Of a stretch of DNA of 64,000 nucleotides, positions 3,200 to 19,068 are shown in pieces. The stretch comes from a virus. Lineage: Duplodnaviria > Caudoviricetes. Under the pieces are notes generated by a model, which was given only the letters and a program-made list of their open reading frames with translations, did no database searches and had not been told where the DNA came from. The translations under genes were made by a program, and so were the position numbers. How positions within the stretch are numbered: position 1 is the stretch's first letter; the number at the start of each line of letters is the position of its first letter. The stretch covers positions 1-64,000 of IMG/VR virus record IMGVR_UViG_3300033068_001704; one strand, 5' to 3'.

Positions 3200-3907
3200 A
3201 TGAACCTTCGCGCCAAGCTCATTCGAGTCGCCCACGAGAACCCGGCCCTCCGCCCCCACCTCCTGCCCATCCTGAAGGACTCGGCACGCGAGGCCTCGGA
3301 GCCGAAGGAAGCCGCTCGCGGGTGGGTGATCCCCCGGAACTCCTACATCCCCAAGGACAACCCGACCGTCCGTCGTGTCGAGTCCCCCGAGGGCATGGAG
3401 ATCTGGGCATGGGAATCCACTGGGAAGACGAGCCCGGTCGTCACGATCCCCTACGCGATCGTGTTCTCGGGGAAGTCTCAGAAGCCGGTGTGGTACCACG
3501 CGTTCCGCAGCGATGCGTCGCGTGACAAGGCCATCTCGGAGGCCATCACGAACTACAGCGCCGTCGCGGCCATGAAGGCGCAGCGGATGAACGAGCGGAA
3601 GAACTTCCAGCACGAACTCAAGGTGGGGGACGTCCTCTACACGAGCTGGGGCTACGACCAGACGCAGGTGGAGTTCTTCGAGGTCACGGCCCTCCCGACC
3701 CCGAAGACGGTTCTGGTCCGCGAGATCGCTGGCCGGACCGTCAGCCAGGGGATGGATTCGAACAAGGTCGAGGCCGTCCCTGGGAAGTTCATCGGCCCGG
3801 CCCTGAAGAGGATCCCCGGGAAGTACGGGGTCAAGATCGACGAGAGTCGGACCGCGTACCTGTGGGACGGCAAGCCCAAGTACGTGACCAGCGGCGGAGG
3901 CCACTGA
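3200..3907 (+). CDS. hypothetical protein with N-terminal LAHxNP tag and SWGYDQT motif
   Basis: AGGAG SD; N-term MNLRAKLIRVAHENPALRPHLLPILK. Confidence 0.8.
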   Translation: MNLRAKLIRVAHENPALRPHLLPILKDSAREASEPKEAARGWVIPRNSYIPKDNPTVRRVESPEGMEIWAWESTGKTSPVVTIPYAIVFSGKSQKPVWYHAFRSDASRDKAISEAITNYSAVAAMKAQRMNERKNFQHELKVGDVLYTSWGYDQTQVEFFEVTALPTPKTVLVREIAGRTVSQGMDSNKVEAVPGKFIGPALKRIPGKYGVKIDESRTAYLWDGKPKYVTSGGGH

Positions 3908-3909
3908 CC

Positions 3910-4314
3910 GTGCTCCACCCGAAGAACATCTCCAAGGAAGAGAAGGCAGAGCGCTTCGCATGGGGCGAGGCGCTGCTCTCCGAGGTGGAGAAGCTTCTTC
4001 AGGGGAAGGGCAAGATCGAGCGCCGTGGCTCGACCTTGAACCTCGAAATCGGAAGTGGGAAGAAGCGCTCCTGGACCGTGGCTGACCTGAACTACGACAA
4101 GCGCAAGGTCACCGTCCGGAACCACGAGGACCAGAAGAAGGTCCTCCCGGCCGACCCGAAGAAGATCGCGGCGTGGATGATCGGGATGCACGACCTCCAG
4201 TTCGTCCACTCGGGGGGCAAGGAGGCCAGCTCAGATCTGCGCTCGCGGACCATCCGTCTCGCGCACGAGAACCCGGCTCTTCGGCCTCACCTGCTCCCGC
4301 TCGTGAAGCGCTGA
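3910..4314 (+). CDS. hypothetical protein with C-terminal LAHxNP tag
   Basis: GTG 3910 after GGAGG; C-term DLRSRTIRLAHENPALRPHLLPLVKR. Confidence 0.75.
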   Translation: MLHPKNISKEEKAERFAWGEALLSEVEKLLQGKGKIERRGSTLNLEIGSGKKRSWTVADLNYDKRKVTVRNHEDQKKVLPADPKKIAAWMIGMHDLQFVHSGGKEASSDLRSRTIRLAHENPALRPHLLPLVKR

Positions 4315-4506
4315 TCAGGCCGTCTCTTCGTCGTACTCACGGGAGCGACAGAAGCCGGTCTCCAGCTCGTACAGGGCGTCGGAGATCAGCTCTCGCTCCT
4401 TCTCGATGATCTGATCAGGTGCGTTCAGATCGAGGAGCCTGACGAGTCGTTCCCGACGGCGAGAGAGTCTGAACCGGGCTTCTTCGGGGGCGATCGGGGT
4501 CTTCAT
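4315..4506 (-). CDS. small hypothetical protein
   Basis: MKTPIAPEE... 63-aa tail of ORF 4315..5145. Confidence 0.5.
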   Translation of the reverse strand: MKTPIAPEEARFRLSRRRERLVRLLDLNAPDQIIEKERELISDALYELETGFCRSREYDEETA

Positions 4507-4542
4507 GGTGATGTACTCTCTACCCCTCCCGGAGGTACAGAG

Positions 4543-4782
4543 ATGATGTCGATCCTGTCTGACCTGGAGCAGGTTGCCCGAGAGATCTCTGTGATCGAAC
4601 CCTTTGCGATCCGCATCGAGACATCCACGGGGATGCTCGAAAAGCTCAGGAAGCGGTGCGCTGTGAGTCATGGCGGTTCCTCGGTGTACGAGGGGGTCCT
4701 GATCGAGACCAACGACACCCTTCAGGGCCGCATGTACCTCGTGCACATGTCGGACGGGACGACGAAGGTTGGCCACTTCTGA
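4543..4782 (+). CDS. small hypothetical protein
   Basis: GGAGGT SD, 79 aa. Confidence 0.55.
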   Translation: MMSILSDLEQVAREISVIEPFAIRIETSTGMLEKLRKRCAVSHGGSSVYEGVLIETNDTLQGRMYLVHMSDGTTKVGHF

Positions 4783-4787
4783 ACGCA

Positions 4788-4823
4788 ACGAAGCCCCCCG
4801 CACAGATGCGCGAGGGGCTTCGT
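4788..4823. terminator. hairpin between convergent genes, possibly bidirectional terminator
   Basis: ACGAAGCCCC...GGGGCTTCGT inverted repeat. Confidence 0.55.
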
Positions 4824-4844
4824 CGTTGGTGGCTTCGAGGAAGC

Positions 4845-5021
4845 TCAGATGGCCGGGGTGAGGGCCAACACGGAGACACCCTCCGTCTGGATCGTCCCCT
4901 CGACCATCCACTTGCAGAATGCGACGCCGTCCTTGACGGACCCGACGGTCATCTTGTCGCTTCCGGACTTGAGGACCACGACGTCCCCGGCCTTGATCTT
5001 CGTCTGTTGAGTCTTGCTCAT
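4845..5021 (-). CDS. YodC/DUF2158-family small protein
   Basis: GDVVVLKSGSDKMTV...CKW pattern. Confidence 0.7.
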   Translation of the reverse strand: MSKTQQTKIKAGDVVVLKSGSDKMTVGSVKDGVAFCKWMVEGTIQTEGVSVLALTPAI

Positions 5022-5059
5022 GCGAGACGGTACCAAGGCCGTGGATGTCGCGGGAGACG

Positions 5060-5962
5060 TCAGGAGCGGGCCACCTCGCGACGCAGCACGTCGCGAATCT
5101 GCGCGACCATGGAGGCCATGCGGTTGCGGGACACGCCCGCGTCATCGGCCAGGTCGCAGCGCTTCACGCCGTCGAGCATCGACTCGAACAGCGCGCCGTA
5201 GCGATCGGCACCGCCCGGGATGCGGTAGCGGACGATGAACTTCGCCGCCTCGATGATCTCTTCCGAGATCATGATGTCCTCGGCGGACCGGCTGCTCGGA
5301 TCGTAGTAGTCGGTGACCTCTCCGCCCTCGACTTCGTAGCGCCGCTCGACGACCGGCTCCTCGGAGTTGACGACGACCAAGGGCATCCGCCCGAGGTCCG
5401 CCTGACGATCGCGGTTGGTCTTCGCGCCACGGGATGCCCGGAGCGACGCGTCCACGCCCCAGCCACGCATCTCGGTGCACGCGGACTGGTGCACCCATGC
5501 GCGCAGCACGCTGAGCTTCGGCTCCCCTCCCTCCAAGATGAACGACGCGAGCGTGTCCTTCTCGATGAGACGGGTGAGGAATGTCTGGACGTGATCTTCG
5601 ATCACCCCGATCCGACGCGAGGTCGGCAGACGATGGGTGAGGTGCTTGACGAGTTCGCTGAACACCTTCCGGCCGTTGCGGGCGAGCCACTGCGACGTGA
5701 GGTTGGGACCAGAGGCCTTCGCCGGAGGCGTGGACTCGGAGAGTTCGGCCGCGAGAGCCATGAGGGTCGCTGCCACGGGGGCGGCTGCGACATCTCCTCC
5801 AAGGGACTGGAGGGCGTCTTGCGCGATCTCGAAGGTGTCGAGATCGAGCTGTGATTCCTCAGCGAGGGCGAGGAGGGTCTGCTGCCGTTCTCCCCCGAGA
5901 ACATTGGCGGCACGTTCGAGACACAGATCGACGGAAAGCGACGAAATCGCGGTCTGGGGCAT
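5060..5962 (-). CDS. sigma-70/ECF-like transcription factor
   Basis: region-2-like EDHVQTFL...LRAWVHQSACTEMR and C-terminal HTH DLADDAGVSRNRMASMVAQIR. Confidence 0.55.
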   Translation of the reverse strand: MPQTAISSLSVDLCLERAANVLGGERQQTLLALAEESQLDLDTFEIAQDALQSLGGDVAAAPVAATLMALAAELSESTPPAKASGPNLTSQWLARNGRKVFSELVKHLTHRLPTSRRIGVIEDHVQTFLTRLIEKDTLASFILEGGEPKLSVLRAWVHQSACTEMRGWGVDASLRASRGAKTNRDRQADLGRMPLVVVNSEEPVVERRYEVEGGEVTDYYDPSSRSAEDIMISEEIIEAAKFIVRYRIPGGADRYGALFESMLDGVKRCDLADDAGVSRNRMASMVAQIRDVLRREVARS

Positions 5963-6174
5963 TGGGGAGGCTCCGGTCAGAGGCCCTGAAGTCAAAGACT
6001 TTCGGGCTAGGTTTGGGGGTACCCGTAGAAGACCTGGGGAGGTCTTGTTCGAGGTTCGGCCGGTATACCTGACGTGAGAGACCTCGTCGAGAGAATTCGA
6101 CCCGGTCTGGAACTGGTCGGTATTCAGGCGATGCCTGACTCCGGGGAGAGAGATCCCAACGGAGTCCGGGAGAA

Positions 6175-7659
6175 ATGCAGATGCTGGAGAAAATCGCGGG
6201 CATGTTCGATGAGATGGACGTGCTTGCTCGCGCCCAGTTCATGGAAGGCTTCCTTGGCTACCGTCCGTTCTCCGCGATCCGCGGGGCAAACGGGAAGTTC
6301 GCCCTCCTCAAGAGGATCTCGCTCATGGCGAGCGAGATCGGGGCGGTCAATCCCGCCTGGCTTTCCAAGAGCGACACGGGCCTCTACCGGAGCGTGCTGA
6401 TGGCGGTGAGCCGTGCCATCCGCTCCGCCCCCGGGGAGCGCGCCATGGAGGGCGCTGACCTGCTCCAGACGATGATGGGTCTGGCGGGCTGGGAGGACGA
6501 GGAGACGGGCGAGACGCTGGAGGTCGGCGGCAAGTCGCCCTTCTGGCTCGCCGGCAAGTACGCCAGCACCGGCGCCTACGCGAAGCGGATGCAGGAAGGG
6601 GATCTGGTCCCCGACGATGCCTCCGGGCTCAGCGTGAAGCTCGCCCACAGGCGTGCCCTCGACGTCCTTCGCTCCGAGGCTCTCCGGGCCCGGAAGACCC
6701 GCGAGAACGCCGACGAGATCATGGAGGAGACCGTCTCGGACTCGTCGGATGACGACGGTGGGGAGTGGGACTCGATCGTCCAGGTGCTTCTCTCGGAGCC
6801 GAACCACCCGCTGTCGAAGAAGTTCTTCGGCTGGATCCAGAACGTCCTCCCGCAGGTCATGCGCGGCCCGAAGGCCTCGGAGGTCATGGGCGGGTACTTC
6901 CAGCTCCTCGGCTCAGGCGAGCTGAAGGGAGGCCGTGGCGTCGATACGCGCGCGGCTGAGATCTTGGGCATCACGCCCATGAAGCTCTACGACTTCAAGA
7001 AGACCTTCGAGACCAACGTCGTCTCGTACATCGAGGCGAACCCGTCCGCGCGAGCGTTCCTCCAGGGGCTGTTCGAGGACACGACCCTCATGAGGGATCT
7101 GTTCCGGGGTCGCGTCCGCCTCGCTGCGAGCCTCAGCCCGAAGGCAAAGGCTCTCCTCGAAGCTCTCGCTGGTCACCCGATCTTCAAGACCGAGAAGGTC
7201 GTCTCCCGCAAGAGCATCGGGGACGTGCTCAAGAAGCACAACTCGAACGGGGCCCCGCTCATGGAGCTGGCGAAGGGTCGGTTCATTTCCTACGACACGA
7301 CCGGGGACTCCCAGGTCTTCGGAGGTCGCATCTCGATCACCAAGAAGGGCTGGGCCGAGGCCAGCAACCAGGATCGAGTCGCCCGCAAGGTCGCTTCGAG
7401 GTTCATGGTCCTCGCTGCCCTTCGTTCGTACCGCTCGGCCTCGGTGACCATGACCCCCGAGAACCGGAAGAAGATCTTCGCGGCGGTCTGGAAGAAGTAC
7501 AAGTCGATGGGTGACGGTCGCATCACCGGCGGCAAGCACCTCGTCTTCGACGCGGCCGGCTCGGCCGTCGTCCCCAGGAACACCACCAAGGCCCTGGAGG
7601 ACATGACGGACGACCAGCTCGTGTCCTTCGCCCGAGAGAAGGGCATCCTCCGCAGCTAG
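6175..7659 (+). CDS. sigma-like protein with C-terminal extension domains
   Basis: AHRRALDVLR (region 2-like) and AAEILGITPMKL (HTH-like); followed by RLAAS/RVARKVAS/RSAS-linked segments. Confidence 0.45.
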   Translation: MQMLEKIAGMFDEMDVLARAQFMEGFLGYRPFSAIRGANGKFALLKRISLMASEIGAVNPAWLSKSDTGLYRSVLMAVSRAIRSAPGERAMEGADLLQTMMGLAGWEDEETGETLEVGGKSPFWLAGKYASTGAYAKRMQEGDLVPDDASGLSVKLAHRRALDVLRSEALRARKTRENADEIMEETVSDSSDDDGGEWDSIVQVLLSEPNHPLSKKFFGWIQNVLPQVMRGPKASEVMGGYFQLLGSGELKGGRGVDTRAAEILGITPMKLYDFKKTFETNVVSYIEANPSARAFLQGLFEDTTLMRDLFRGRVRLAASLSPKAKALLEALAGHPIFKTEKVVSRKSIGDVLKKHNSNGAPLMELAKGRFISYDTTGDSQVFGGRISITKKGWAEASNQDRVARKVASRFMVLAALRSYRSASVTMTPENRKKIFAAVWKKYKSMGDGRITGGKHLVFDAAGSAVVPRNTTKALEDMTDDQLVSFAREKGILRS

Positions 7660-8592
7660 GCCCTCCAGGAGGCCCTGAGAGACCCAAAGAGGGTCCGGCG
7701 TCTCCCTGCACAGCCCAAAGAGGCTCCTGGGCATCCTGGAGCCTCCCGTGAAGACCCGGCCTAAAAACCGGGTCTTTCGCGTTTCGGTGGCAGGTGGTCG
7801 GAAAAAATTGGTAGCCGAACGGATTCGGACTCAGTAGACTCGGCGCGGTTTGTTCTCTCCTCATCGAGGAGACGTGGATTCCCTCCCGGTCTGGACCTTC
7901 TCGTAGCCTTCGGGCTCGTGAACCAATGGACCGGGGTCAGAGAGGCCCCCCGCCAACAAGGGGTCTCACGGGGTCCAGACCCGAAAGGGTCGTAGAGGCT
8001 GAGGCCAGCGGGCGCTACCGAACGAACTTCCGCATCCTCTTCGGAGGTCGGATCCAAGGACCCGTCACAAGTCGGCCTACGCAATGAGGCCCTCGGGGGT
8101 GGTTACGTAAGAACGGACCCCTGTAGATACCAACCTCCCGTTCCCGTTGGGTGGACCTCCTTCTCGCCAGTCGAGAGGGGACAAAGGCCAGAGGGAACAG
8201 ACCCGACCTGCAAGGGCGGATCACCTAGGAGGGGAAGAGATGAAGATCTCTTCCTTTCGTAGAAAGGGAAGAAGAAGGTTGGTAGCTGATTGTGTCATCA
8301 ACAAATACTACTGCTGAAGACACTGAAATACCTGCCGAGTGAGTCGAAGACGAACGAGTTAGAGCTGCTGTAGACGCTGTAGACGACGACGTAGACGCTG
8401 AAGTTAGGGTAGCAAGAGCCTCCTCCAGTCCGAAAGGCAGGGAAGGTCAGACAGGGGAAGACGATTTCCCCTAGGATCAACGAGTCGGGGGACTCGTAAG
8501 GGATTCGTGTACCTATCAGGTCTATACGGCCTGTTTGGGAGCGAGATCTCCTGGTCCACGTATGGGTTGGGAGAGGGAAGAGAGAGCCCTCT

Positions 8593-8916
8593 GTGGGAAG
8601 CCCGTACCGGATGAACGTGAGCTTTCCTCGTCTTGTCGAGGATGCCTGGGACATCCTCCGAGACCGGAGGTATCCGTGCTTCCCTCATGGGAGTAGGGCA
8701 GCACCCTCTCGGGTGATGTACGTGTTCCCGAAGTTTGATCAGGGATACGCGTACGACCTCTGGGAGAGAGTGGTGGCTCCGACCCTCTTTGCTCTGAATC
8801 AGAGCCCTCCCCCCTACGCTGGAGGTTGGGACAACCCGGTCTCGAAGGACCTGGTAGACGCTGCTCTCAGGTCTGCCCTCTCTGAGTCGGCCTGGGCGAA
8901 CAAGATCGACTACTGA
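8593..8916 (+). CDS. hypothetical protein
   Basis: 107-aa ORF; start uncertain (GTG 8593 or ATG 8611). Confidence 0.45.
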   Translation: MGSPYRMNVSFPRLVEDAWDILRDRRYPCFPHGSRAAPSRVMYVFPKFDQGYAYDLWERVVAPTLFALNQSPPPYAGGWDNPVSKDLVDAALRSALSESAWANKIDY

Positions 8917-8982
8917 AACCCTTGGTTTCTGAGGGATCCTGGACCGAGTCGAAAAAAAGATCGCCTCCTTGTCGTTTTCTGT

Positions 8983-9011
8983 TTGACGCAAAGATCGACG
9001 TCCATTAGATA
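8983..9011 (+). promoter_or_regulatory. putative sigma-70 promoter of leader/tRNA operon
   Basis: TTGACG -35, 17-nt spacer, weak TAGATA -10, A/T-rich tract upstream. Confidence 0.45.
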
Positions 9012-9046
9012 ACCCACTCCAGGTTCATAGAACCAAGAACACCACC

Positions 9047-9178
9047 ATGCGTCCCCTGCATCACACCTGCCCGATGGCAATCTCGTATACGGCCGAAGCG
9101 CCGAATACGGATTGGTCCGTCGGCACGCTCGTGATCGGTCTCTTCGCGAGCCCCAAGCAGGAGCGTACCACCGGGTGA
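9047..9178 (+). CDS. attenuator leader peptide, 43 aa (MRPLHHTCPMAISYTAEAPNTDWSVGTLVIGLFASPKQERTTG)
   Basis: short ORF between promoter and terminator; all 20 amino acids; stop codon overlaps antiterminator. Confidence 0.65.
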   Translation: MRPLHHTCPMAISYTAEAPNTDWSVGTLVIGLFASPKQERTTG

Positions 9179-9207
9179 CCTGACCTTCCCATCTTCGGAT
9201 GTGACTC

Positions 9208-9246
9208 AGGCCACCCAGGGAAACCCGGGTGGCCTTTCGTCGTTCT
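9208..9246 (+). terminator. attenuator terminator hairpin before first tRNA
   Basis: AGGCCACCC-A-GGG AAA CCC-GGGTGGCCT followed by TTCGTCGTTCT. Confidence 0.7.
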
Positions 9247-9272
9247 AGGCCCTTCTGATTCTGACCGCGAAC

Positions 9273-9356
9273 GGAGCTTGACGTGGGACGGGTGTCCCCT
9301 CCTGACTGTAAATCAGGCGCCTTCGGGCATGGTGGGTTCGAGTCCCACCGGCTCCA
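9273..9356 (+). tRNA. tRNA-Tyr(GTA)
   Basis: CCTGA-CTGTAAA-TCAGG arm, long variable arm, GTTCGA T-loop. Confidence 0.9.
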
Positions 9357-9444
9357 TCTCGAAATCGACTAGACCTATACGAAAATCGAATACTACAGGG
9401 CGTAAGCAGTTGCATCCACACCAGAAACCCTGCGGCTCCTCTTT

Positions 9445-9516
9445 GGGGTCGTAGCTCAGCGGCAGAGCAGGGAGCTTTTAACTCCACGGTCGAGGGTTCG
9501 ATCCCCTCCGACCCCA
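9445..9516 (+). tRNA. tRNA-Lys(TTT)
   Basis: cloverleaf, loop CTTTTAA. Confidence 0.9.
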
Positions 9517-9533
9517 CTTTCTTGAGTACGTGC

Positions 9534-9605
9534 GCCGAGTTAGCTCAGCGGAAGAGCAGCGGGTTCTTAACCCGACGGTCGAGGGTTCGATCCCCTCACT
9601 CGGCA
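9534..9605 (+). tRNA. tRNA-Lys(CTT)
   Basis: cloverleaf, loop TTCTTAA. Confidence 0.9.
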
Positions 9606-9676
9606 TCGGGGTTCGTCTAACGGCAAGACGACGGTCTCTGGAACCGTCTATCGGGGTTCGAATCCCTGACCCCGAA
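9606..9676 (+). tRNA. tRNA-Gln(CTG)
   Basis: cloverleaf, loop CTCTGGA. Confidence 0.9.
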
Positions 9677-9827
9677 CTTCGGTGAGCACCCCCAGGGGCT
9701 CCCCGGTTTCAGGTTCCCTGACAACTGAATAGGATTCCTTCAAGGCAGCTCTCCAAAGGGCTGCTGGTCGAGATCTGAGCTGGCGTACCGGGAAACCGGA
9801 CGGGTGGTTCAGGGGCTCGACCTACAT

Positions 9828-9899
9828 TCCAGGATAGCTCAGCGGTAGAGCGCTCGGCTGTTAACCGAGATGTCGCAGGTTCGATCCCTGCTCCTGGAG
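9828..9899 (+). tRNA. tRNA-Asn(GTT)
   Basis: cloverleaf, loop CTGTTAA. Confidence 0.92.
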
Positions 9900-10026
9900 C
9901 TAGAGTGGGGGCTGTAGAGAAGCGCGGAGAGTTGTAGCTGTGGATCGCCAGGGGTGACCTGGAAGGATCAGGCGAAATCACGCGCTCTACTGCCTCAACT
10001 CGCCAACGTTCGGTTCGGTTCGCGTA

Positions 10027-10099
10027 TACGTCGGGTGCATGGGCACAGGCAGGCCTCCAAAACCAGCTCTGGGTTGGGTTCGATTCCCCCACGACGTGT
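10027..10099 (+). tRNA. tRNA-Trp(CCA), atypical
   Basis: loop CTCCAAA, T-loop GTTCGATT; mismatched anticodon stem and short D-arm. Confidence 0.6.
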
Positions 10100-10198
10100 A
10101 GATCTGAAAGCAGTGGGGGCAAGCGCCGGGGAGATGTCCTCGGAAGCACCCCTGCCAAGCGTCGGATCGAAAGGGCCTGGAGACATCCAGGTCTGATT

Positions 10199-10273
10199 GC
10201 CTTCACGGTCCAGTCTGGAGTGGACGCCTGGTTGTCAACCAGGAGATCGCGGGTTCAAATCCCGCTGGGGGCG
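10199..10273 (+). tRNA. tRNA-Asp(GTC)
   Basis: CCTGG-TTGTCAA-CCAGG. Confidence 0.9.
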
Positions 10274-10289
10274 CTGTTCCTGTTCGCAC

Positions 10290-10362
10290 GCCGCGATAGC
10301 TCAGTCGGTAGAGCGCTCGTTTGAAAAGCGGGAGGCCACTGGTTCAAATCCAGTTCGCGGCA
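10290..10362 (+). tRNA. tRNA-Phe(GAA)
   Basis: cloverleaf, loop TTGAAAA. Confidence 0.9.
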
Positions 10363-10509
10363 TAGGCCCTCCCCTCGGTCGCTCCGAGGGCACAAAGGCT
10401 GAACTCGGCGGTCGCGCTGCCGAGAGGGTTGAGAGTCGGTAATCCCGCGCTGGCGGGGAATCCGACCTGGGCGGAGCCGGCGCGTCGTCTCCGTCCGCAA
10501 CCCACCAAC

Positions 10510-10582
10510 GGGTCTGTAGCTCAGTTGGGAGAGCGTCCGGTTCGCAATCGGAAGGTCAGGGGTTCGACTCCCCTCAGATCCA
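10510..10582 (+). tRNA. tRNA-Ala(CGC)
   Basis: loop TTCGCAA, G3-U70. Confidence 0.9.
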
Positions 10583-10598
10583 CTCTTCTCGTCACCAT

Positions 10599-10672
10599 GT
10601 CCTCGTCGTCTAGCTGGCCCAGGACGGCGGCCTCTCACGTCGCAAACCGGGGTTCGAATCCCCGCGGGGACG
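10599..10672 (+). tRNA. tRNA-Glu(CTC)
   Basis: loop CTCTCAC. Confidence 0.9.
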
Positions 10673-10736
10673 CTTCTTTTCTTGTTCTCTCTCGCTCCGA
10701 CCGCCGAACACCGGGCTCGTGCCGGTCGGACGCGGT

Positions 10737-11415: not shown

Positions 11416-11559
11416 TCGTGAGACCGTCTGTTTGGCGAACGGGGCCGCAGACCTCTGAGCATGCCCCCGCGCTGCGGGGGAGACACCGGGATCGCCGCCC
11501 GGACACGTTCTGCGGACGTGATGGTGCAACACCCAGAGGCAGACGGCTCTCACGAACAT

Positions 11560-11631
11560 CGTCTCGTAGCTCAGGGGAAGAGCGCCGGCTCGACACGCCG
11601 GAGGCCGTGGGTTCGAAACCCACCGGGACGA
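11560..11631 (+). tRNA. tRNA-Val(GAC)
   Basis: CCGGC-TCGACAC-GCCGG. Confidence 0.88.
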
Positions 11632-11675
11632 CTTCGATTCAGCTTCGTTTCCCCTGTTATAGGGCCATCGGGTAG

Positions 11676-11930
11676 ATGGAAAACCTCCGCTCCAAGCTCA
11701 TCCGCCTCGCCCACGCAAACCCCGAGTTCCGGAAGGACATTCTCCCCCTCGTCTCGAAGACGGCGGACGAGACCGTCTACCAGGTTCGGGATCTCAAGGG
11801 AGAGCTGATCATCTGGGAGGTCCCCAAGGGCTCGCACGCCCAGAAGGTGAAGACCCCGAAGCTGGTCGAGGAGTTCCCGTCTCGTGGGGCCGCGAAGAGC
11901 TTCATCCTGAAGGGACGCGAGAAGGCGTAA
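11676..11930 (+). CDS. small protein with N-terminal LAHxNP tag
   Basis: MENLRSKLIRLAHANPEFRKDILPLVSKTA. Confidence 0.75.
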   Translation: MENLRSKLIRLAHANPEFRKDILPLVSKTADETVYQVRDLKGELIIWEVPKGSHAQKVKTPKLVEEFPSRGAAKSFILKGREKA

Positions 11931-12075
11931 GGTAGGGGATGCGAAAGCTGCACGTCCTCCTCACCCAACCTCGGGCCGTGCTGAGATTCTTCCTTCTCAC
12001 CCGCCCGATGCCTCTCTTCGTGTTCCGTGCCCTCGCGCCTCTGGCGGGAGTGCGACCTGACCTGTTCGAGAACGA

Positions 12076-12148
12076 GGGTCCGTAGCTCACCTGGGAGAGC
12101 GCCTGCATGGCATGCAGGAGGTAGTCGGTTCGAGTCCGACCGGATCCA
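12076..12148 (+). tRNA. tRNA-Ala(GGC)
   Basis: CCTGC-ATGGCAT-GCAGG, G3-U70. Confidence 0.9.
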
Positions 12149-12374
12149 GTGGCCGAAAGGCCTGACATCTTCCCCTCCGTGCCGTCAGGGAGGGATCGGA
12201 GTATAGAGACCCCCACCTTCGTGGTGGGCTAGGCCACTCACTGACGGCAACCAACAATCCTGCGGTAGGGGCGGGTCACCGCACGTCGTTTCCCTACCGG
12301 GTTCTCACCGTTCGCCGACAACAGGATAGGAGGCGATGAACGGGGGGGACGATCCCATGAATGCGGTGAATCTC

Positions 12375-12448
12375 GGGTCCTTAGCTCAGTTTGGGAGAGC
12401 GGCGGCTTTGCAAGCCGTAGGTCGTCGGTTCGATCCCGACAGGATCCA
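12375..12448 (+). tRNA. tRNA-Ala(TGC)
   Basis: loop TTTGCAA, G3-U70. Confidence 0.92.
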
Positions 12449-12460
12449 CTTCTAGTTCAC

Positions 12461-12533
12461 GCCCCCATAGCTCAGTTGGAAGAGCGCGCGCTTGGTATGT
12501 GCGAGGTCGCCGGTTCAACCCCGGCTGAGGGCT
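12461..12533 (+). tRNA. tRNA-Thr(GGT)
   Basis: loop TTGGTAT. Confidence 0.88.
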
Positions 12534-12729
12534 CTTGTTCGTGGCTCCACTCTCTGCTTCGGCACGAAGGTCGGGATAAGTCCCGGCAACGCAAACCCCT
12601 CGGGAAACCGGGGTGTTAGGCGTGGGCTGCGAGCGCATCATCTACCTCACCGGGCGTGGTGAGATCGGTCGCAGGACCGAGCCCTCGGTAGGGGGTGTGT
12701 GCCTACGGGACGCCTTCCCTTGGGTAGCT

Positions 12730-12802
12730 GCGACCATCGCCTAGTGGAATGGCACCTGGCTTCCAACCAGGAACAACGCGGGTTCGAACCCCGCTGGTCG
12801 CT
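12730..12802 (+). tRNA. tRNA-Gly(TCC)
   Basis: CCTGG-CTTCCAA-CCAGG. Confidence 0.9.
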
Positions 12803-12821
12803 CTCGGGCGTAAGATTGGGG

Positions 12822-13175
12822 ATGGACCCCTTCCGAACGTTCACCAAGATGAGCTGCTTGGGTTGCTCTTCGCCCCTCTTGTCCGAGGGGCCTTGCTCAT
12901 CGTGTGGGTTGAAGGCCAACCCGAGTCTCGATCAGGACAACGTCTCGATCGAGACCAACTCCCTCGAACTCCGAGTTCTTCTGTACTGGGCCCTGAGGGG
13001 GGCCGATGCCTCTGCTGCCTCTGGGGACAAGCAGGGGGTGGAGACGCAAGGGGTGTGTGAGGCGATTGCCTCTCGGTTCGAGGCTCAGCTCGGTCGTCCT
13101 CTCTCGGACGATCGGGAGTACAGACAGCGAATCGTCGGGGGGAACCCCCTGTACGATGTACCTCCGCGGGTGTAG
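12822..13175 (+). CDS. hypothetical zinc-ribbon protein (CxxC...CxxC)
   Basis: ATG 8 nt after GCGTAA; 3' end overlaps next tRNA. Confidence 0.5.
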   Translation: MDPFRTFTKMSCLGCSSPLLSEGPCSSCGLKANPSLDQDNVSIETNSLELRVLLYWALRGADASAASGDKQGVETQGVCEAIASRFEAQLGRPLSDDREYRQRIVGGNPLYDVPPRV

Positions 13176-13237
13176 CTCAGCGGCAGAGCATCTGCTTCCC
13201 AAGCAGAAAGTCGTCGGTTCGATCCCGATCACCCGCT
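13166..13237 (+). tRNA. tRNA-Gly(CCC)
   Basis: TCTGC-TTCCCAA-GCAGA. Confidence 0.92.
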
Positions 13238-13255
13238 CTCACAGTTCAGTTCTTC

Positions 13256-13415
13256 GGGGACCTAGCATATCAGGAAGTGCTTCTGCCGGTTTGCACCCGG
13301 TGGGTGTCGGAAGCGGCAGGGAAGGGACGGAGGGGTAGCTGCCCGAGTTCATCCAGGTCGGCAAGACATAACGCCCGTGTAGGGCGTGGTTTGGGTTCAA
13401 TTCCCAAGGTCTCCA
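13256..13415 (+). ncRNA. oversized tRNA-Ala-like RNA (160 nt)
   Basis: GGGGACC/GGTCTCC-A acceptor with G3-U70, T-arm TTGGG-TTCAATT-CCCAA, TGC loop, ~89-nt variable region. Confidence 0.6.
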
Positions 13416-13418
13416 TAC

Positions 13419-13489
13419 GGCGCGGTCTTCTTGGGAAGGACGCCGATTGCAACCCGGCGAAGGATTGGGTTCGAATCCCTCTCGCGCCT
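13419..13489 (+). tRNA. tRNA-Cys(GCA)
   Basis: loop TTGCAAC, U73, short D-arm. Confidence 0.8.
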
Positions 13490-13498
13490 CTCGTTCCT

Positions 13499-13572
13499 GT
13501 CCCTGTAGCTCAGTCGGATAGAGCGCTTGCCTTCTAAGCAGGATGTCGGTGGTTCGATCCCACCCGGGGACG
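13499..13572 (+). tRNA. tRNA-Arg(TCT)
   Basis: loop CTTCTAA. Confidence 0.9.
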
Positions 13573-13823
13573 TTGGAGGTTCTGGTGGGTCAGCATCGAG
13601 CAGCGCTTCGAGCGAAGCGGTGGAGAAGGCGGGAAGAGCGTCGGGCTCAACGCCAACGGCTCATCAAGTTCATGACGGGACCGATCCGGTCCCTGTTCGG
13701 GTACGCGGCGGTTGGGCGGTCCATCTTCACGGTCACCCCGATCCCCGAAGACTGATGCGGACCTGCCACGTGTAGGAACCGTTACGGGTTCGTTCGCCCT
13801 CGGGGGGGCGGACCCAGCTACTT

Positions 13824-13897
13824 GTCCGCGAAGCTCAACTGGATGAGCGCCCGGCTACGGACCGGGAGGTTGGCGGGTTCGACTCCCTCCGCGGACG
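13824..13897 (+). tRNA. tRNA-Arg(ACG)
   Basis: CCCGG-CTACGGA-CCGGG. Confidence 0.9.
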
Positions 13898-14026
13898 CTT
13901 CACTTCGTGTCGCTGCATCTCCCGTAGAGCGTGAAGATGATGGCGAACACGAGCACGATCCTGAGTCCTTGGCGCATCAGATGGGTGTGACCTGGAACGG
14001 GCGTGCAAGCCAACCGAAGTTGGTTG

Positions 14027-14098
14027 GTCCTCGTAGCTCAGAGGAAGAGCACTGGTTTCCGAAGCCAGGTGTCGCAGGTTCGATTCCTGCCGGGGACG
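14027..14098 (+). tRNA. tRNA-Arg(CCG)
   Basis: loop TTCCGAA. Confidence 0.9.
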
Positions 14099-14112
14099 CT
14101 GTTACGAAATGA

Positions 14113-14188
14113 CGCGGAGTGGGGGAGCAAGGTCGTCCCCGCTGGGCTCATAACCCGGAGATCGCAGGTTCAAATCCTGTCTCCGCAA
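14113..14188 (+). tRNA. initiator tRNA-fMet(CAT)
   Basis: C1:A72 mismatch, three consecutive G-C pairs in anticodon stem. Confidence 0.9.
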
Positions 14189-14316
14189 GGACGGAAGCCG
14201 GACGGATAACGACCCCCAAAGGTTGCCGTCGGGTCCCCGTGGTCTGGTGCGCGCCACGTAGAAGGGTCTCTGCGAGTAGCTCCGGAGCGAGTCGCAGAGA
14301 GCGCACTTTCCAACAA

Positions 14317-14388
14317 CCCTCCGCCCAGTGTGTTCTGGCGGCATCCTTCATACGGGTGACTTCGTCGGTTCGATTCCGACCGGAGGGA
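14317..14388 (+). tRNA. tRNA(CAT), elongator Met or Ile2, atypical D-arm
   Basis: CCCTCCG/CGGAGGG acceptor, loop TTCATAC, GTTCGA T-loop. Confidence 0.65.
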
Positions 14389-14569
14389 TAGCTGAATCGC
14401 ACCAGGGGTTCGTGGGCAGGCCGCCGCGAAGCTCGGGACGAGGAGGTGCAATCGTACTCAGGCCGCTGACGACAAGTCAGGGGGGAGCCGTACAAGACGG
14501 CGTAGACGGGCGGGGAGCCCGGACCTGTGTGGATGTCGGTGAAAGACCGACCGAGTAGTACGATGACAT

Positions 14570-14641
14570 CGGGGTGTAGCGAAGTGGTATCGCGCTCGGT
14601 TCGGGACCGAGAGATCACAGGTTCGATCCCTGTTACCCCGA
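14570..14641 (+). tRNA. tRNA-Pro(CGG)
   Basis: CTCGG-TTCGGGA-CCGAG. Confidence 0.9.
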
Positions 14642-14647
14642 CTTCTT

Positions 14648-14719
14648 GCACGAATAGCTCAGCGGCAGAGCAGCGGTTTTACACATCGCCGGTCGGGGGT
14701 TCGATCCCCTCTTCGTGCA
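14648..14719 (+). tRNA. tRNA-Val(TAC)
   Basis: loop TTTACAC. Confidence 0.9.
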
Positions 14720-14816
14720 CAACGCCCTCGGGGGGAGAACCCCAGGGGGCGTCCAGCGCGGAGGCGCAACTCTTTCGGGGGAGGACCCCGAGAGTCGCCT
14801 TCGGTTCTGGACAAAC

Positions 14817-14897
14817 GGGGACGTGGTGTAATGGCAGCCACGCCAGACTAAGGATCTGGTGCGTAACAGCGTGTGGGTTCGACTCCCACCGTCCCCA
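14817..14897 (+). tRNA. tRNA-Leu(AAG)
   Basis: CCAGA-CTAAGGA-TCTGG, long variable arm, A73. Confidence 0.85.
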
Positions 14898-14920
14898 CTG
14901 TTCGAGTTCGAGACCCCATT

Positions 14921-15006
14921 GCCGGGGTGGTGGAATTGGCAGACACACTGGTTTCAGAAATCAGCGGCCCTTCGTGGTCATGGGGGTTCGACTCCCCCCT
15001 CCGGCA
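14921..15006 (+). tRNA. tRNA-Leu(CAG)
   Basis: loop TTCAGAA, long variable arm. Confidence 0.9.
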
Positions 15007-15067
15007 CTTCTCGGGACCTCCCCGAGGACTTCTCAATCAGGGAAGGATAGTAGAGACTGAGGCACCT

Positions 15068-15149
15068 GCGGGACTGGTGGAACTGGCAGACACACCGGCT
15101 TCAAACCCCGGCGATTTCGATCATGGGGGTTCGACTCCCCCGTCCCGCA
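15068..15149 (+). tRNA. tRNA-Leu(CAA)
   Basis: loop TTCAAAC, long variable arm. Confidence 0.88.
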
Positions 15150-15170
15150 CACAGCAGAAAATAGGGCACC

Positions 15171-15701
15171 ATGCAGAACACTCTCGTCTTGGACCAGGGG
15201 TACCAACCCCACAGGGTCGTGTCTTGGCAACGGGCTGTCATGATGTGGTGGGACGGCAAGGTCGAGGTCGTCTCGGAGTACGACGAGGACATCCGGTCGG
15301 TCTCGATGACGATCAAGATGCCCGCGGTCGTCCGCTTGCTCCACCGCGTTCGTGGTCGTCGTCAGGCCGTGAAGTTCAGCCGTCTGAACGTCGCGACCCG
15401 CGATGACTTCCGGTGCCAGTATTGCGGGGACTCGCTCCCGCTCTCGAAGCTCACGTACGACCACGTTGTTCCGCGCTCCAAGGGCGGGCGGACGGTGTGG
15501 GAGAACATCGTGATGGCTTGCTACGGGTGCAACGAGACGAAGTCGAACCGGACGCCTGAGCAGGCGGGGATGAAGCTGCGCAAGCAGCCCGTCAAGCCGG
15601 CTCACCTGCCGGTCGTCACGTTCCGGTTCAACACCGGATCGATCCCGGATGCCTGGGCGTCTTGGATCTACTGGAACGGGGCTCTCGAAGAGGGCTCCTG
15701 A
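15171..15701 (+). CDS. HNH endonuclease (McrA-like)
   Basis: RDDFRCQYCG...TYDHVVPRSKGG...WENIVMACYGCNETK. Confidence 0.92.
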   Translation: MQNTLVLDQGYQPHRVVSWQRAVMMWWDGKVEVVSEYDEDIRSVSMTIKMPAVVRLLHRVRGRRQAVKFSRLNVATRDDFRCQYCGDSLPLSKLTYDHVVPRSKGGRTVWENIVMACYGCNETKSNRTPEQAGMKLRKQPVKPAHLPVVTFRFNTGSIPDAWASWIYWNGALEEGS

Positions 15702-15768
15702 GGTCTTCCCCCCGAGCTGCCGTGTCGCCCTACTCGGCGCTCGGGGGGACGTCTCGAACGCAGATTCT

Positions 15769-15840
15769 CGGGGTGTGGCGAAGTGGTATCGCACTCGGCT
15801 GGGGGCCGAGGGATCGCAGGTTCGAACCCTGTCACCCCGA
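15769..15840 (+). tRNA. tRNA-Pro(GGG)
   Basis: CTCGG-CTGGGGG-CCGAG. Confidence 0.9.
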
Positions 15841-15845
15841 TTCGT

Positions 15846-15931
15846 GGAGGGCTAGCCTAATGGCAAGGCACCGGCTTTGAACACCGGCGTGGGTGTAACA
15901 GCCCTTGGGGGTTCGAGTCCCTCGCTCTCCG
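15846..15931 (+). tRNA. tRNA-Ser(TGA)
   Basis: loop TTTGAAC, long variable arm, G73. Confidence 0.88.
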
Positions 15932-15941
15932 TAGAGTGCGT

Positions 15942-16115
15942 ATGAGCAACAAGCCGGTTAGGAAACTCGACCTCCTTCGTGATTGCAACGACCAAGGGGT
16001 CGCTCCGAAGGACTTCATGGCGACCTTCTGTCAGCGGTGTCGCAATCCTGAGTGCGTCAACGCTGAGTGGGCGGGCTCCGGTCGGAAGGGGGATCGCCTG
16101 GGATCTCTCCGTTAG
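15942..16115 (+). CDS. small Cys-containing protein (57 aa)
   Basis: MSNKPVRK...FCQRCRNPEC; below ORF track cutoff, read manually. Confidence 0.45.
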   Translation: MSNKPVRKLDLLRDCNDQGVAPKDFMATFCQRCRNPECVNAEWAGSGRKGDRLGSLR

Positions 16116-16139
16116 AAAGTCTCTCCAAGGTCGAGATGT

Positions 16140-16352
16140 ATGAGGCTCCCGCGAGACCGAGAGAAGTTGCTCCTCGAAGGCAAGTCGATGAACCGGGCTG
16201 AGGTCTTCCTGAACGGGAAGCTCATGAGCCGCGTTTCGGAGGTCGATGACGAGGAGAACTGGGTCGAGGTCAAGAAGACCTCAGGCGGCGCCGTCTTCTC
16301 CGAGCGCAAACACGGGAAGGTGAAGATCACCTTCCCCTCGAACGAGGCCTGA
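16140..16352 (+). CDS. small hypothetical protein
   Basis: 70-aa ORF. Confidence 0.55.
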   Translation: MRLPRDREKLLLEGKSMNRAEVFLNGKLMSRVSEVDDEENWVEVKKTSGGAVFSERKHGKVKITFPSNEA

Positions 16353-16427
16353 ACACATGAACACCACGTCGAGGAAGGGGGCCGTCTTCTAGGTTCCCGG
16401 GGACTCACTCCCCGGGCCAGGAGACAC

Positions 16428-16601
16428 ATGGCCCGTACGAAGTTCCGACCGAAGCGCAGGCCGTATCTGAAAGAGGATACGTCCTTCCGACGGATCTCGA
16501 TCCGACGCTGGAAGGCGCGCTGCCGCCAGGCGGCCCGCAACCACGACTGGGAGGCCTTCCCGATCCCGTTCAAGGGGACGGAGGGGTGGGACTCATGGTG
16601 A
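16428..16601 (+). CDS. small Arg-rich basic protein (57 aa)
   Basis: AGGAG SD; MARTKFRPKRRPY...GWDSW; read manually. Confidence 0.6.
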   Translation: MARTKFRPKRRPYLKEDTSFRRISIRRWKARCRQAARNHDWEAFPIPFKGTEGWDSW

Positions 16602-16807
16602 GTCCCCGCTGGGTCAAGGCGATCGAGAGTCGCCTTGGACGTCGCTCCCCCAAGCGCATGCCGACGAAGCACCTCTCGACTTCGATCTGGTACGACTGGC
16701 CGTACGCTGGACCCTCTCCGGGTCGGCAGCTCCGGGAGTTCGTGAAGTCGGCCAGGAAGAAGGAAGCGCGAGAGGCTTGGCGCATCGAGCGTCTCGACGA
16801 TGAGTAG
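16598..16807 (+). CDS. small basic protein
   Basis: GTGA overlap with previous ORF. Confidence 0.5.
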   Translation: MSPRWVKAIESRLGRRSPKRMPTKHLSTSIWYDWPYAGPSPGRQLREFVKSARKKEAREAWRIERLDDE

Positions 16808-17110
16808 AGTGAGCTGCGGGACGCCCTGACGGGGAACAGCCGTCGCCGGACTACATCCGGAACCCCACGGCGCTGCGTGCTAGCCGCAGAGCACGTACGT
16901 GGGGGCGCGAGTGGGAAGCTCGACGTCCCGTACAACAAGTTCGTGCTGGAAGGAAAGCGGTAGCTCCGCACAAGCTCCAGCACCGCGTCACCTCCTACCC
17001 TAGAGGTGTAACCGCGCGTGTAACAGCCCGGGGGGCCCCCCGATGCCGGCGTCGGTTCGCTGGTTGGGTGGACCACCCCCCGGGTGACTGGGTTCAAGAA
17101 GGAGGGCGAC

Positions 17111-17611
17111 ATGGCATGGCATCCCATGTCGGATTCGGTTCGAGATCTCGCGGCACGCCATGGCGTCAGCCTCCGGAATCAGTTGACGTGGCGGAAGCAG
17201 ATCTACGACGGCAAGGGCATCGCGTTGTGGTGGTACAACCGAAATCGGAAGCAGGTGCTGCCACTTTCGGACCACGACATCGCACATGACATCGCCCACC
17301 ATGTCGTAGCAGCGCCTGAGCAGCGAGACCTGCCGGAGTACGGGCTCGGCAATCCGTTCGCTGTGTTCGGGGAGACGTTCACGGTGCGCGTCGTAGATGA
17401 TGAGGAGTGTGAGATCCAAGAGTATCTCGCTCAACGTCTGACTTGTCTTTGGGGCCAGCGCTACGGATTCCAGTTCCTGCTCTCAAGCGAGCCGGGCTGG
17501 GAGATCAGGTCCTGGGAAGAGTACGGGGCCTACAAGAACCAACTGCTGATCGAGTCTGGTCGTCTCGACCAGGTAGAGCAGCGTTGGCAGGAGGTTCTGC
17601 CGAGGGTCTAG
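17111..17611 (+). CDS. hypothetical protein with HDIAH motif
   Basis: AAGGAGG SD before ATG 17111. Confidence 0.65.
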   Translation: MAWHPMSDSVRDLAARHGVSLRNQLTWRKQIYDGKGIALWWYNRNRKQVLPLSDHDIAHDIAHHVVAAPEQRDLPEYGLGNPFAVFGETFTVRVVDDEECEIQEYLAQRLTCLWGQRYGFQFLLSSEPGWEIRSWEEYGAYKNQLLIESGRLDQVEQRWQEVLPRV

Positions 17612-17623
17612 GGAGAGTTCACT

Positions 17624-17710
17624 GGAAGGGCTAGCCGATTGGTGACGGCACTTCGTTGGAAACGAAGCGAGCCTGAAAGGGCCTTGCGGGTTCGACCCCC
17701 GCTCCTTCCG
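17624..17710 (+). tRNA. tRNA-Ser(GGA)
   Basis: CTTCG-TTGGAAA-CGAAG, long variable arm. Confidence 0.9.
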
Positions 17711-17751
17711 TTCGTGGGTGCGATGTCGGCTCTATCAAACGGAGACGTAGG

Positions 17752-19068
17752 ATGAGCACGCGACACGCAAGGATCATTGCCCTTTCTCCGGCGACGGTGA
17801 AGGACTTCCGCAACGACTTCCTGACCCTGGTCGGGAACGTCAAGCGAGTGAAGAACTACGACGACGCGTTGAAGCTGAGGGACGGGATCCGCTCGTGGCG
17901 TGACGTGTTCGACGACTGGCTCAAGCAGATCCGATCGGACATCGAGAGCCGCAAGCGAGAGACCCCTGGCAAGGCAGCGCTCCCGGAGCACGAGATCGAC
18001 ACGATGCTCGCGGGGATCAAGCCGGCGTGGGAACTCTCCACCGAGCTGATGAGGTTCCCCCTTCGGGTCTACGACCCGGAGATGGAGCAGTGGCACCCGA
18101 AGTCCAAGCTCTTCGCTGAGTACGCGAAGGAGGTTGGAGCCTGGGACACGCGGATCCGGAAGAAGGCGCCCACCGCCTGGAAGGCGCTGGAGTACGCCGC
18201 GGACTGGGCGACCCGATGGGGCGACGACGCCATCAAGGTGAAGGTCAAGGAGACCCAGAACCTCACGGTCGAGGGGTTCCGCGTCCGGCTCAACGGGTTC
18301 GAGGACGGGGACGTGAGCGGGGAGTTCATGCCCCGCCTGGCAGAGGGTCTCCGCTTCTACCGGGAGCGTGCGAAGAAGGTCCTGCCGCTGCTGATCTCGA
18401 AGCAGCTCCCGTTGGTGGTCAACGCCGACTGGGGCAGCAACGGTGGGGATGCCGCAGCAACCTACGAGCGAGACCACATCTCGCTGAGCCCCTGGGGGCA
18501 TGCCACCAAGGACCTCCGCGGCTTCGCCCACGTGATGGCCCACGAGATGGGTCACCACATCTACAAGACCTACATCTCCGGAGAGTCCGAGAAGGCGTGG
18601 ACCACCTTCATCAAGGGTGGGGAGATCCCGCTCGACCTGAGGGACCTCGCGAAGGCTCTCGCGAAGTACGGCGACAACCCCACGGTCATCGACGACAAGC
18701 TCCGGGCGCAGGATCCGATCCTCGCCCTTCAGTTCGAGGGCTTGCAGGAAGATCGGCGGTACAAGGACCAGGACCTGTTCAACCTTCGGGGTGTCCGGGA
18801 GTACCTGGCCGAGAACAAGGACCCGATCGTCTACGTCAGCCGGAGGCCGATCACCGGGTACGCGCAGAAGAACCCTGAAGAGGCGTTCTGCGAGGTCATC
18901 GGGCTTCTAGTCGGGTACGGCCCGAAGACCGTCCTCCCTGAGGTCGCAGGCTTCGTGAGGTCGATCCTCCCGGAGATCCGTCTCGGGTCGCTTCGGAGAG
19001 AGGTCATCCGCTTGGCTCACGCGAAGCCGGAACTCCGACCCCATCTTCTGCCGCTTCTGAAGCGGTAG
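17752..19068 (+). CDS. zincin-type metallopeptidase with C-terminal LAHxP tag
   Basis: AHEMGHH plus distal YAQKNPEEAFCE; C-term SLRREVIRLAHAKPELRPHLLPLLKR. Confidence 0.75.
   Translation: MSTRHARIIALSPATVKDFRNDFLTLVGNVKRVKNYDDALKLRDGIRSWRDVFDDWLKQIRSDIESRKRETPGKAALPEHEIDTMLAGIKPAWELSTELMRFPLRVYDPEMEQWHPKSKLFAEYAKEVGAWDTRIRKKAPTAWKALEYAADWATRWGDDAIKVKVKETQNLTVEGFRVRLNGFEDGDVSGEFMPRLAEGLRFYRERAKKVLPLLISKQLPLVVNADWGSNGGDAAATYERDHISLSPWGHATKDLRGFAHVMAHEMGHHIYKTYISGESEKAWTTFIKGGEIPLDLRDLAKALAKYGDNPTVIDDKLRAQDPILALQFEGLQEDRRYKDQDLFNLRGVREYLAENKDPIVYVSRRPITGYAQKNPEEAFCEVIGLLVGYGPKTVLPEVAGFVRSILPEIRLGSLRREVIRLAHAKPELRPHLLPLLKR

Follow-up and report, generated by a model that had tools for sequence, protein, structure and literature searches.

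The first 64,000 nucleotides of the virus record IMGVR_UViG_3300033068_001704 (Duplodnaviria; Caudoviricetes), referred to here as the window, contain four genes whose products carry nearly the same short peptide, hereafter the tag, at one end or the other of otherwise unrelated proteins. The whole record comprises 222,154 bp with 63% G+C, and positions in whole-genome numbering are marked G000. All four genes lie on the + strand. The first (3200..3907) encodes a protein of 235 amino acids (aa), in which the N-terminal tag core (3206-3277) is followed by a linker and a beta-rich cargo (phrog_37844). The second, read from a GTG at 3910 (3910..4314; 134 aa), has its tag core at the C-terminus (4237-4308), with KEAS before it. 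The third (11676..11930; 84 aa), which starts 44 nt past a tRNA-Val gene, is tagged at the N-terminus (core 11685-11756), and the fourth (17752..19068; 438 aa), which starts 41 nt past a tRNA-Ser gene, combines a helical bundle and a predicted zincin-like metallopeptidase with a C-terminal tag (core 18991-19062) that is preceded by IRLGS. The four near-identical peptides are all present at the positions and ends given by the original prediction, as are the K/R-x-A/G motifs that it had listed at the tag borders.

A profile built from the four tags was run against a six-frame translation of the whole genome, a check that the original prediction had proposed, and this doubled the count: eight copies were detected, with E-values from 3e-18 to 3e-11 and a single copy in every protein. 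The four additional genes start at G000 74277, 99869 and 123984, all with N-terminal tags, and at G000 75416, where six residues follow a C-terminal tag. A ninth copy was not found in the six frames of the genome, where the next profile match had an E-value of 1.5 and no sub-threshold copy was seen. Since the completeness of the record is estimated by CheckV at approximately 50%, eight copies represent a lower bound.

The tags are 24-30 aa long, and their 24-residue core has the consensus LRSKLIRLAHxKPELRPHLLPLLK, in which eight columns (L, R, R, A, H, P, R and P) are invariant among the eight copies. Different codons are used in 57% of the 451 identical-residue pairs, and the mean nucleotide identity of the tags is 67%. 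The codon differences argue for selection on the peptide and against a recent DNA repeat, in line with the earlier claim that conservation acts at the protein level. The claim that the tagged proteins are otherwise unrelated now extends to all eight, as the best pairwise match between them with the tag masked has an E-value of 0.37. The tag itself has a net charge of +3 to +5, and seven of the eight cargos are net basic, compared with 32% of the proteome (p 0.002).

Structure prediction with AlphaFold2 on alignments suggests that the tag consists of two helices broken at the conserved proline. The predicted helices span residues 2-13 and 15-25 in the 3200 protein, and residues 414-424 and 426-437 in the 17752 protein, and the confidence within the tags of these two proteins (predicted local distance difference test, pLDDT, of 65-86) is below that of the cargo. 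The linker of the 3200 protein (aa 26-42), which contains both REAS and KEAA, has a pLDDT below 50. On these models, the tag is predicted to be a basic helix-Pro-helix hairpin, with a flexible linker holding the cargo away. Comparison of the 3200 cargo fold with the PDB gave no convincing match.

The cargo of the 17752 protein contains an HEMGH sequence (18541-18555), and H264, E265, H268 and E376/E377 are invariant among its homologues, corresponding to an HExxH motif with a downstream Glu. The cargo was modelled by AlphaFold2 with a pLDDT of 90, and the best fold matches were anthrax lethal factor (Z 10.3, root-mean-square deviation 3.8 over 159 residues) and PPEP-3 (Z 9.8), while none of the Pfam models matched. 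Among its 117 homologues, fusions to topoisomerase IB were seen in at least ten and a fusion to GNAT in one. By fold and fusions, the 17752 cargo is predicted to be a zincin-like metallopeptidase of the polyvalent-protein type without a Pfam family match. Zincin peptidases have been described as the hub domain of phage polyvalent proteins, and these proteins are considered likely to be packaged (Iyer et al. 2017, PMC5512222). Only three of the 117 carry the tag, two of them C-terminally and the third N-terminally. Many of the others end in [VI][KR]xA[SR] followed by an RVA[AS]R[FY] tail at the place where the 17752 protein carries its tag, and from their sequences the tail and the two-helix tag look interchangeable. 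The RVA[AS]R[FY] motif is also found in the genes at G000 104748 and 191312, and may serve as a further tag, as a site of cleavage or in both ways.

A profile of the eight tags was searched against 1.84 billion representative proteins, and 3,647 protein clusters matched at E <= 1e-3, of which 543 matched at E <= 1e-10. In a second search, 8,000 candidates were scored, and 1,866 of these proteins reached E <= 1e-6. Nearly all of the matching proteins are unnamed metagenome proteins, many of them on contigs of 200-650 kb. In 210 fetched proteins, 436 tags could be anchored, with 159 at the N-terminus, 66 at the C-terminus and 211 at internal positions. With half of the database copies internal, and one zincin cargo tagged at the C-terminus or the N-terminus depending on the phage, the tag is portable and end-independent, as had been proposed. 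Many of the database proteins carry two to six copies, and some consist only of tags and highly charged low-complexity linkers, which are strongly acidic in the multi-tag proteins. The cargo domains found elsewhere include RelA/SpoT, GNAT, WGR, pentapeptide repeats and topoisomerase-linked domains, and one protein, P0002, is a tag-bearing polyprotein of 1780 aa with a GNAT domain and five tags.

Among 50,697 phage records, searched by tblastn of the tag, a single one carries the tag, namely the uncultured 485-kb LR745208.1, which has 11 profile matches. In this record, the homologue of an untagged 494-aa protein of the window (6175..7659, +) is 594 aa long and has an internal tag followed by an extra domain. 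A megablast search of window positions 3000-8000 against the phage records returned nothing, and related IMG/VR records have from 1 to 21 profile matches each. A degenerate DNA pattern, scanned against 185,579 species genomes, matched seven contigs. Each of these comes from a metagenome-assembled genome (MAG); their labels cover at least four phyla (Actinomycetota, Pseudomonadota, Myxococcota and Acidobacteriota) with no common host, and the same pattern scan did not find the tag in isolate bacterial genomes. No Pfam or PHROG model covers the tag, in searches with both the tagged proteins and tag-only sequences and, for Pfam, even at E <= 10, and nothing specific on a tag of this kind was found in the literature. 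The tag is restricted to huge phages and phage-like DNA, and it defines a large, undescribed family that is absent from Pfam and PHROGs.

The head module of the phage is located at 51-66 kb, with the terminase gene at 51464. On the + strand, it further encodes the portal protein (53960..55753), a head-module polyprotein of 1394 aa (56196..60380), a smaller head-module protein (60474..61040), a prohead protease of 492 aa (61664..63142) and an acidic scaffold-like protein (63155..64000), which is cut by the end of the window and extends to G000 64453. Two small genes lie between those of the polyprotein and the prohead protease. The polyprotein has the RVA[AS]R[FY] motif at its joints (aa 168-176, 476-495 and 851-865) and contains a short module, M2, at 58788-58910. 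The 60474 protein contains another such module, M3, and is a homologue of small proteins of other huge phages with the arrangement tag-M3-tag, its own tag being undetectable. An HK97-type capsid protein is encoded outside the window at G000 65415-66293 (L001:5415-6293), and its Phage_capsid match (E 1e-4) is below the Pfam threshold. Judged by this protein, Tunturi_5 (48% identity) and phage G (39%) come closest among cultured phages, and the nearest of them infects an acidobacterium. A simple GC3 gene caller did not pick up a decoration-like open reading frame at G000 64709-65389 (L001:4709-5389). It is flanked by the scaffold and capsid genes, which is the position where phage G and Tunturi_5 encode their decoration protein. 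The prohead protease has a C-terminal extension of approximately 200 aa and, at 62210-62281, a Cys-rich insertion of zinc-ribbon-like character (C..C and C..H spacing) beside the predicted active-site serine region.

Across the tag-bearing relatives, the capsid protein is 84-94% identical, the protease 35-65% and the scaffold 31-59%. A near-invariant tag needs a near-invariant reader, and the conservation of the capsid protein is therefore counted in favour of a role of the tag in the head. That this level of identity is kept across phages of 222-497 kb makes the constraint on the capsid protein unusually strong. A degenerate tag in the 60474 protein, the scaffold or the C-terminus of the protease was considered and rejected, as the tag profile gave a probability of 0.2% against the 60474 family and no sub-threshold match was seen. 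Also rejected as too weak was a similarity between an N-terminal stretch of P0003 (aa 58-73) and the invariant N-arm of the capsid protein (TQPLRxRRDY), with 9 of 16 residues and a single-comparison E-value of 9e-4. P0003 is a three-tag protein from a 2-kb metagenome contig, and its likeness to the capsid N-arm could be mimicry or an assembly artefact.

The borders of the tag were compared across the database proteins. Internal and C-terminal tags are preceded by the consensus K-[D/E]-A-S, which abuts the LR that opens the tag; downstream of N-terminal and internal tags it is LLPLL-K-[E/K]-A-A. For the 436 tags of the 210 proteins, K-x-A-[SAG] is present at the fixed position in 25% of cases upstream and 15% downstream, compared with a background of 0.26% per position elsewhere in the same proteins, which amounts to a 60-100-fold enrichment at the tag. 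The scaffold of the window phage contains 11 instances of K-x-A-[SA], with 1.7 expected from shuffles, and 13 of the 15 scaffolds compared (the window phage and 14 relatives) exceed their shuffles at p < 0.05. Near residue 25 of the prohead protease, [VI]-R-x-A-[AS] is kept amid variable sequence, both in the window phage (aa 24-28; 61733-61747) and in nine of the nine full-length distinct homologues shown. In the whole genome [VIL][KR]xA[SA] occurs 32 times, and 11 of these instances fall within the block at 46.7-66.3 kb, which accounts for 10% of the proteome (p 2e-4). The site of the T4 prohead protease is L/I-x-E, and by analogy this overall pattern resembles what a prohead-protease site would look like in this phage. 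The [VI]-R-x-A-[AS] motif in the protease itself is a candidate self-cleavage site. In all M3 proteins of the head module (60474-61040 and those of the relatives L027-L042), the C-terminus consists of K-[KE]-[AT]-[AS] and a subsequent aromatic-Gly-aromatic tail (FGLY, GFNL or HGY).

Two relatives have tagged genes within their head operons. In L038, whose portal and capsid proteins are 71% and 94% identical to those of the window phage, an N-terminally tagged gene is inserted directly behind the portal gene, ahead of the homologue of window gene 55781, and in LR745208.1 (capsid 93% identical) a tagged gene of 143 aa lies between the scaffold gene and the decoration and capsid genes. Fusions also connect the tag with head proteins. 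In P0198 and P0055, M2 (F..P.TGN.V.F.SLP.EEQ) stands directly behind the N-terminal tag, and in the genome of the window phage it is confined to the head polyprotein. M3 (FD..EIG..PG...YMKG.FTQ.E) is located between two tags in the family of small proteins mentioned above and is confined to the 60474 protein in this genome; the two M3 families align with an hhalign probability of 98.5% (E 3e-15), and the polyprotein of three related loci has M3 as its own C-terminal portion. Head-operon placement, fusion evidence and the flank motif are the new links presented here. At least four short portable modules, none of them in Pfam, accompany the tag in the charged-linker proteins: M2, M3, M4 (EGK..DPT.NMSPED.KKW..N.DKY.DKFK) and M5 (GCEKLPEGPMRDNC.KKK). 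Proteins with such tag-associated modules are P0001, P0004, P0007, P0021, P0098 and P0198.

Our preferred explanation, with an estimated probability of about 0.55, is that the tag serves as a portable docking element through which cargo is brought into the prohead, and that it is probably removed at K-x-A↓S/A. One conserved, phage-encoded partner would read the tag, and unrelated proteins would in this way be recruited into the assembling prohead, packaged and probably delivered together with the DNA. The tag would most likely be read by the HK97-type capsid protein, on its inner face, or by the acidic core of the scaffold. The prohead protease may then cut off the tag, or cut a polyprotein at its tag-bearing joints, at [K/R]-x-A↓[S/A]. 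We infer that the tag binds a head component and that the tagged proteins are encapsidated, cleaved and injected. The original prediction of a head-loading signal is upheld as regards a portable tag that is conserved at the protein level and works from either end; its capsid-loading part has circumstantial backing from the genes in head operons of two relatives, the fusions and the zincin cargo, and for the putative cleavage the argument from the motif is coherent. A more elaborate possibility, which we regard as tentative, is that huge phages of this lineage, although true viruses, have a programmable cargo system of the encapsulin type, in which the inner face of the capsid would read the tag, a tag added to either end would suffice to direct any protein to the head, polyproteins would be cut at K-x-A↓S into separate enzymes and the multi-tag proteins would act as extra scaffold.

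Several observations weigh against loading into the head. None of the eight tagged genes is part of the head module, their distance to the capsid gene being 8-62 kb, and the neighbourhood evidence rests on two lineages. No tagged head structural protein was found in 24 related head loci, the scaffold included, and relatives with a nearly identical capsid protein differ widely in their number of tags (the 1 to 21 matches given above). The four tagged genes of the window sit among tRNA genes, of which there are 37 at 9.2-20 kb, and not among head genes. Only eight protein genes of the genome have their start no more than 150 nt behind a tRNA or tmRNA gene, and four of these are tagged (Fisher p 4e-5), namely window genes 11676 and 17752 and those at G000 74277 and 75416. 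On other contigs, the tagged genes are likewise found among metabolic and accessory genes. The tag was not found in Tunturi_5 or phage G, and no cultured phage carries it. As these two phages have no tag, their published proteomes are unusable for tagged proteins, and cleavage-site data were not found in the multi-omics paper on phage G. The exact flank motif is present in only 15-25% of the tags, with RLGS in the 17752 protein and no motif in the 75416 protein, and it could be a helix cap or a part of the tag instead of a cut site.

The adjacency to tRNA genes may reflect accessory-gene islands or co-transcription with the tRNAs, and a translation-linked role is kept open. An apparent similarity upstream of the tagged genes is explained by the 3' ends of tRNA genes, and a search for a promoter common to tagged and head genes found none. 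The phage also encodes a tmRNA (G000 74947-75329; L001:14947-15329) with the tag peptide ANDNSYAQAIAA, located between two tagged genes, the first of which follows an odd tRNA-Arg(CCT)-like gene at 74149-74224.

One alternative is that the tag docks on a phage-encoded hub other than the capsid, which might be a factory for replication or translation, a chaperone, the shell of a compartment or a complex of several enzymes. Accessory enzymes would in this way be concentrated in the infected cell. The scatter of tagged genes among accessory and metabolic genes, their frequent position behind tRNA or tmRNA genes, the RelA/SpoT, GNAT and WGR cargos found elsewhere and the lack of tagged structural proteins in the 24 head loci all point in this direction. 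We nevertheless consider such a hub unlikely, since it leaves unexplained the tagged genes within head operons, the fusions with M2, M3 and topoisomerase IB, and the flank motif common to scaffold and protease. No candidate for the hub was found either, and a genome-wide scan revealed no LRV or HEAT repeat protein. A translation-related setting would also suit a tag that binds a host factor, acting as a degron recognised by a protease of the host or the phage, or attaching proteins to the machinery with which the host transcribes or translates, and RelA/SpoT and GNAT cargos would suit this as well. The pattern scan did not, however, find the tag in isolate bacterial genomes, the few MAG matches share no host across at least four phyla, and a degron would not be expected in two to six copies or at internal joints, which together leave this explanation with a very small chance.

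The composition of the tag and of the proteins that carry it suggests two further alternatives. The tag could be a self-associating sticker forming helical bundles, with the multi-tag charged proteins cross-linking a matrix or condensate, perhaps an inner body of the head. This would account for the many proteins made up only of two to six tags and charged low-complexity linkers, and it is consistent with the resemblance of those linkers to the acidic scaffold of the window phage and with the amphipathic two-helix prediction. The genome studied here, however, has single-tag proteins only, and the near-invariant polar residues (R, H and R) suggest a specific partner over generic helix packing, so that we regard a sticker as improbable. 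The positive charge of the tag, the seven basic cargos and the WGR, pentapeptide-repeat and topoisomerase-linked cargos found elsewhere could instead indicate that the tag is a small hairpin that binds nucleic acid and so keeps enzymes attached to the DNA or RNA of the phage. This seems highly improbable, as the conserved positions are mostly hydrophobic or A, H and P without a basic-contact pattern, no similarity to known DNA-binding families was found in Pfam, and the linkers of the multi-tag proteins are strongly acidic.

Huge phages have hundreds of genes whose role is not assigned. Should docking in the prohead be correct, the 3,647 clusters would be sorted into one functional class of proteins that are most likely packaged and probably injected. 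This class would include peptidases, acetyltransferases, alarmone synthetase-like enzymes and DNA mimics, plausibly acting in the first minutes of infection. Capsid-targeting signals would thereby be extended from T4 and the encapsulins to an abundant environmental phage lineage. If it is the capsid that reads the tag, thousands of orphan huge-phage proteins would be explained at once, and a ready-made packaging tag would become available for engineering; a defined 25-residue tag with a candidate cleavage motif would help to load proteins into phage-derived shells.

Among known systems, the capsid targeting sequence of T4, found on IPI-III and Alt, comprises about ten residues, is strictly N-terminal and is cut at L/I-x-E by the prohead protease. 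Both this signal and the tag are short portable peptides on unrelated proteins, that of T4 being thought to load the prohead core. In T4 the cleavage motif also occurs in scaffold proteins, and the cargo includes host-modifying enzymes and basic proteins. The packaging of T4 Alt has been discussed previously (PMC5512222). Unlike the T4 signal, the tag has 24-30 aa and two predicted helices, stands at either end or internally in up to six copies, and is associated with the candidate motif K-x-A↓S/A. It has no sequence similarity to the T4 signal, and the likeness to T4 drawn in the original prediction does not hold in sequence, length or position.

Encapsulin cargo-loading peptides are short terminal tags that dock enzymes on the inner face of an HK97-fold shell, and they are modular, transferable and sometimes repeated. 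They differ from the tag in being shorter, with extended GSL-type motifs, in having the cargo gene beside the shell gene and in the absence of a protease. The phage studied here has a genuine viral capsid as its shell, and its cargo genes are spread over the genome, adjacency to the shell gene being seen only in the relative LR745208.1. In P22, the C-terminal helix-turn-helix of the scaffolding protein binds coat protein and has been engineered to load foreign cargo into procapsids. The tag, as modelled by AlphaFold2, is likewise a basic two-helix hairpin of similar size, with a charge of +3 to +5. The P22 hairpin, however, belongs to the scaffold, which exits without proteolysis, whereas here the scaffold and the 24 related head loci are untagged.

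Polyvalent proteins (Iyer et al. 2017, PMC5512222) combine zincin peptidase, GNAT, ADP-ribosyltransferase and DNA-enzyme domains in one polypeptide and are considered likely to be packaged and processed, and tag-bearing polyproteins such as P0002 fit this class. In contrast to the tag family, the domains were described in that work with no common linker or terminal tag. Here these domains are also encoded individually, every such gene having a tag of its own, and the tag may therefore take the place of covalent linkage. In giant phages of the phiKZ/SPN3US type, prohead cleavage follows S/A/G-x-E, and their propeptides are not known to have a sequence in common. Many head-internal and ejection proteins of giant phages are reported to be processed by the prohead protease (PMC5694885, PMC10052503). 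These phages belong to another lineage than the tag-bearing phage.

The tag also resembles the LRV repeat (PF01816), a helix-NP-helix unit of approximately 24 residues, and in P0048 a tag is directly followed by true LRV repeats. An identity of the tag as an LRV or HEAT repeat was rejected, since there was no Pfam match at E <= 10 and the copies are single or separated by long charged linkers, with no solenoid. Stacking of the tag on an LRV or HEAT partner was likewise rejected, on the result of the genome-wide scan given above. The proposed mode of action is like that of the T4 signal and the encapsulin peptides, and the tag is a member of neither group, as it differs from both in length, position, fold and motif.

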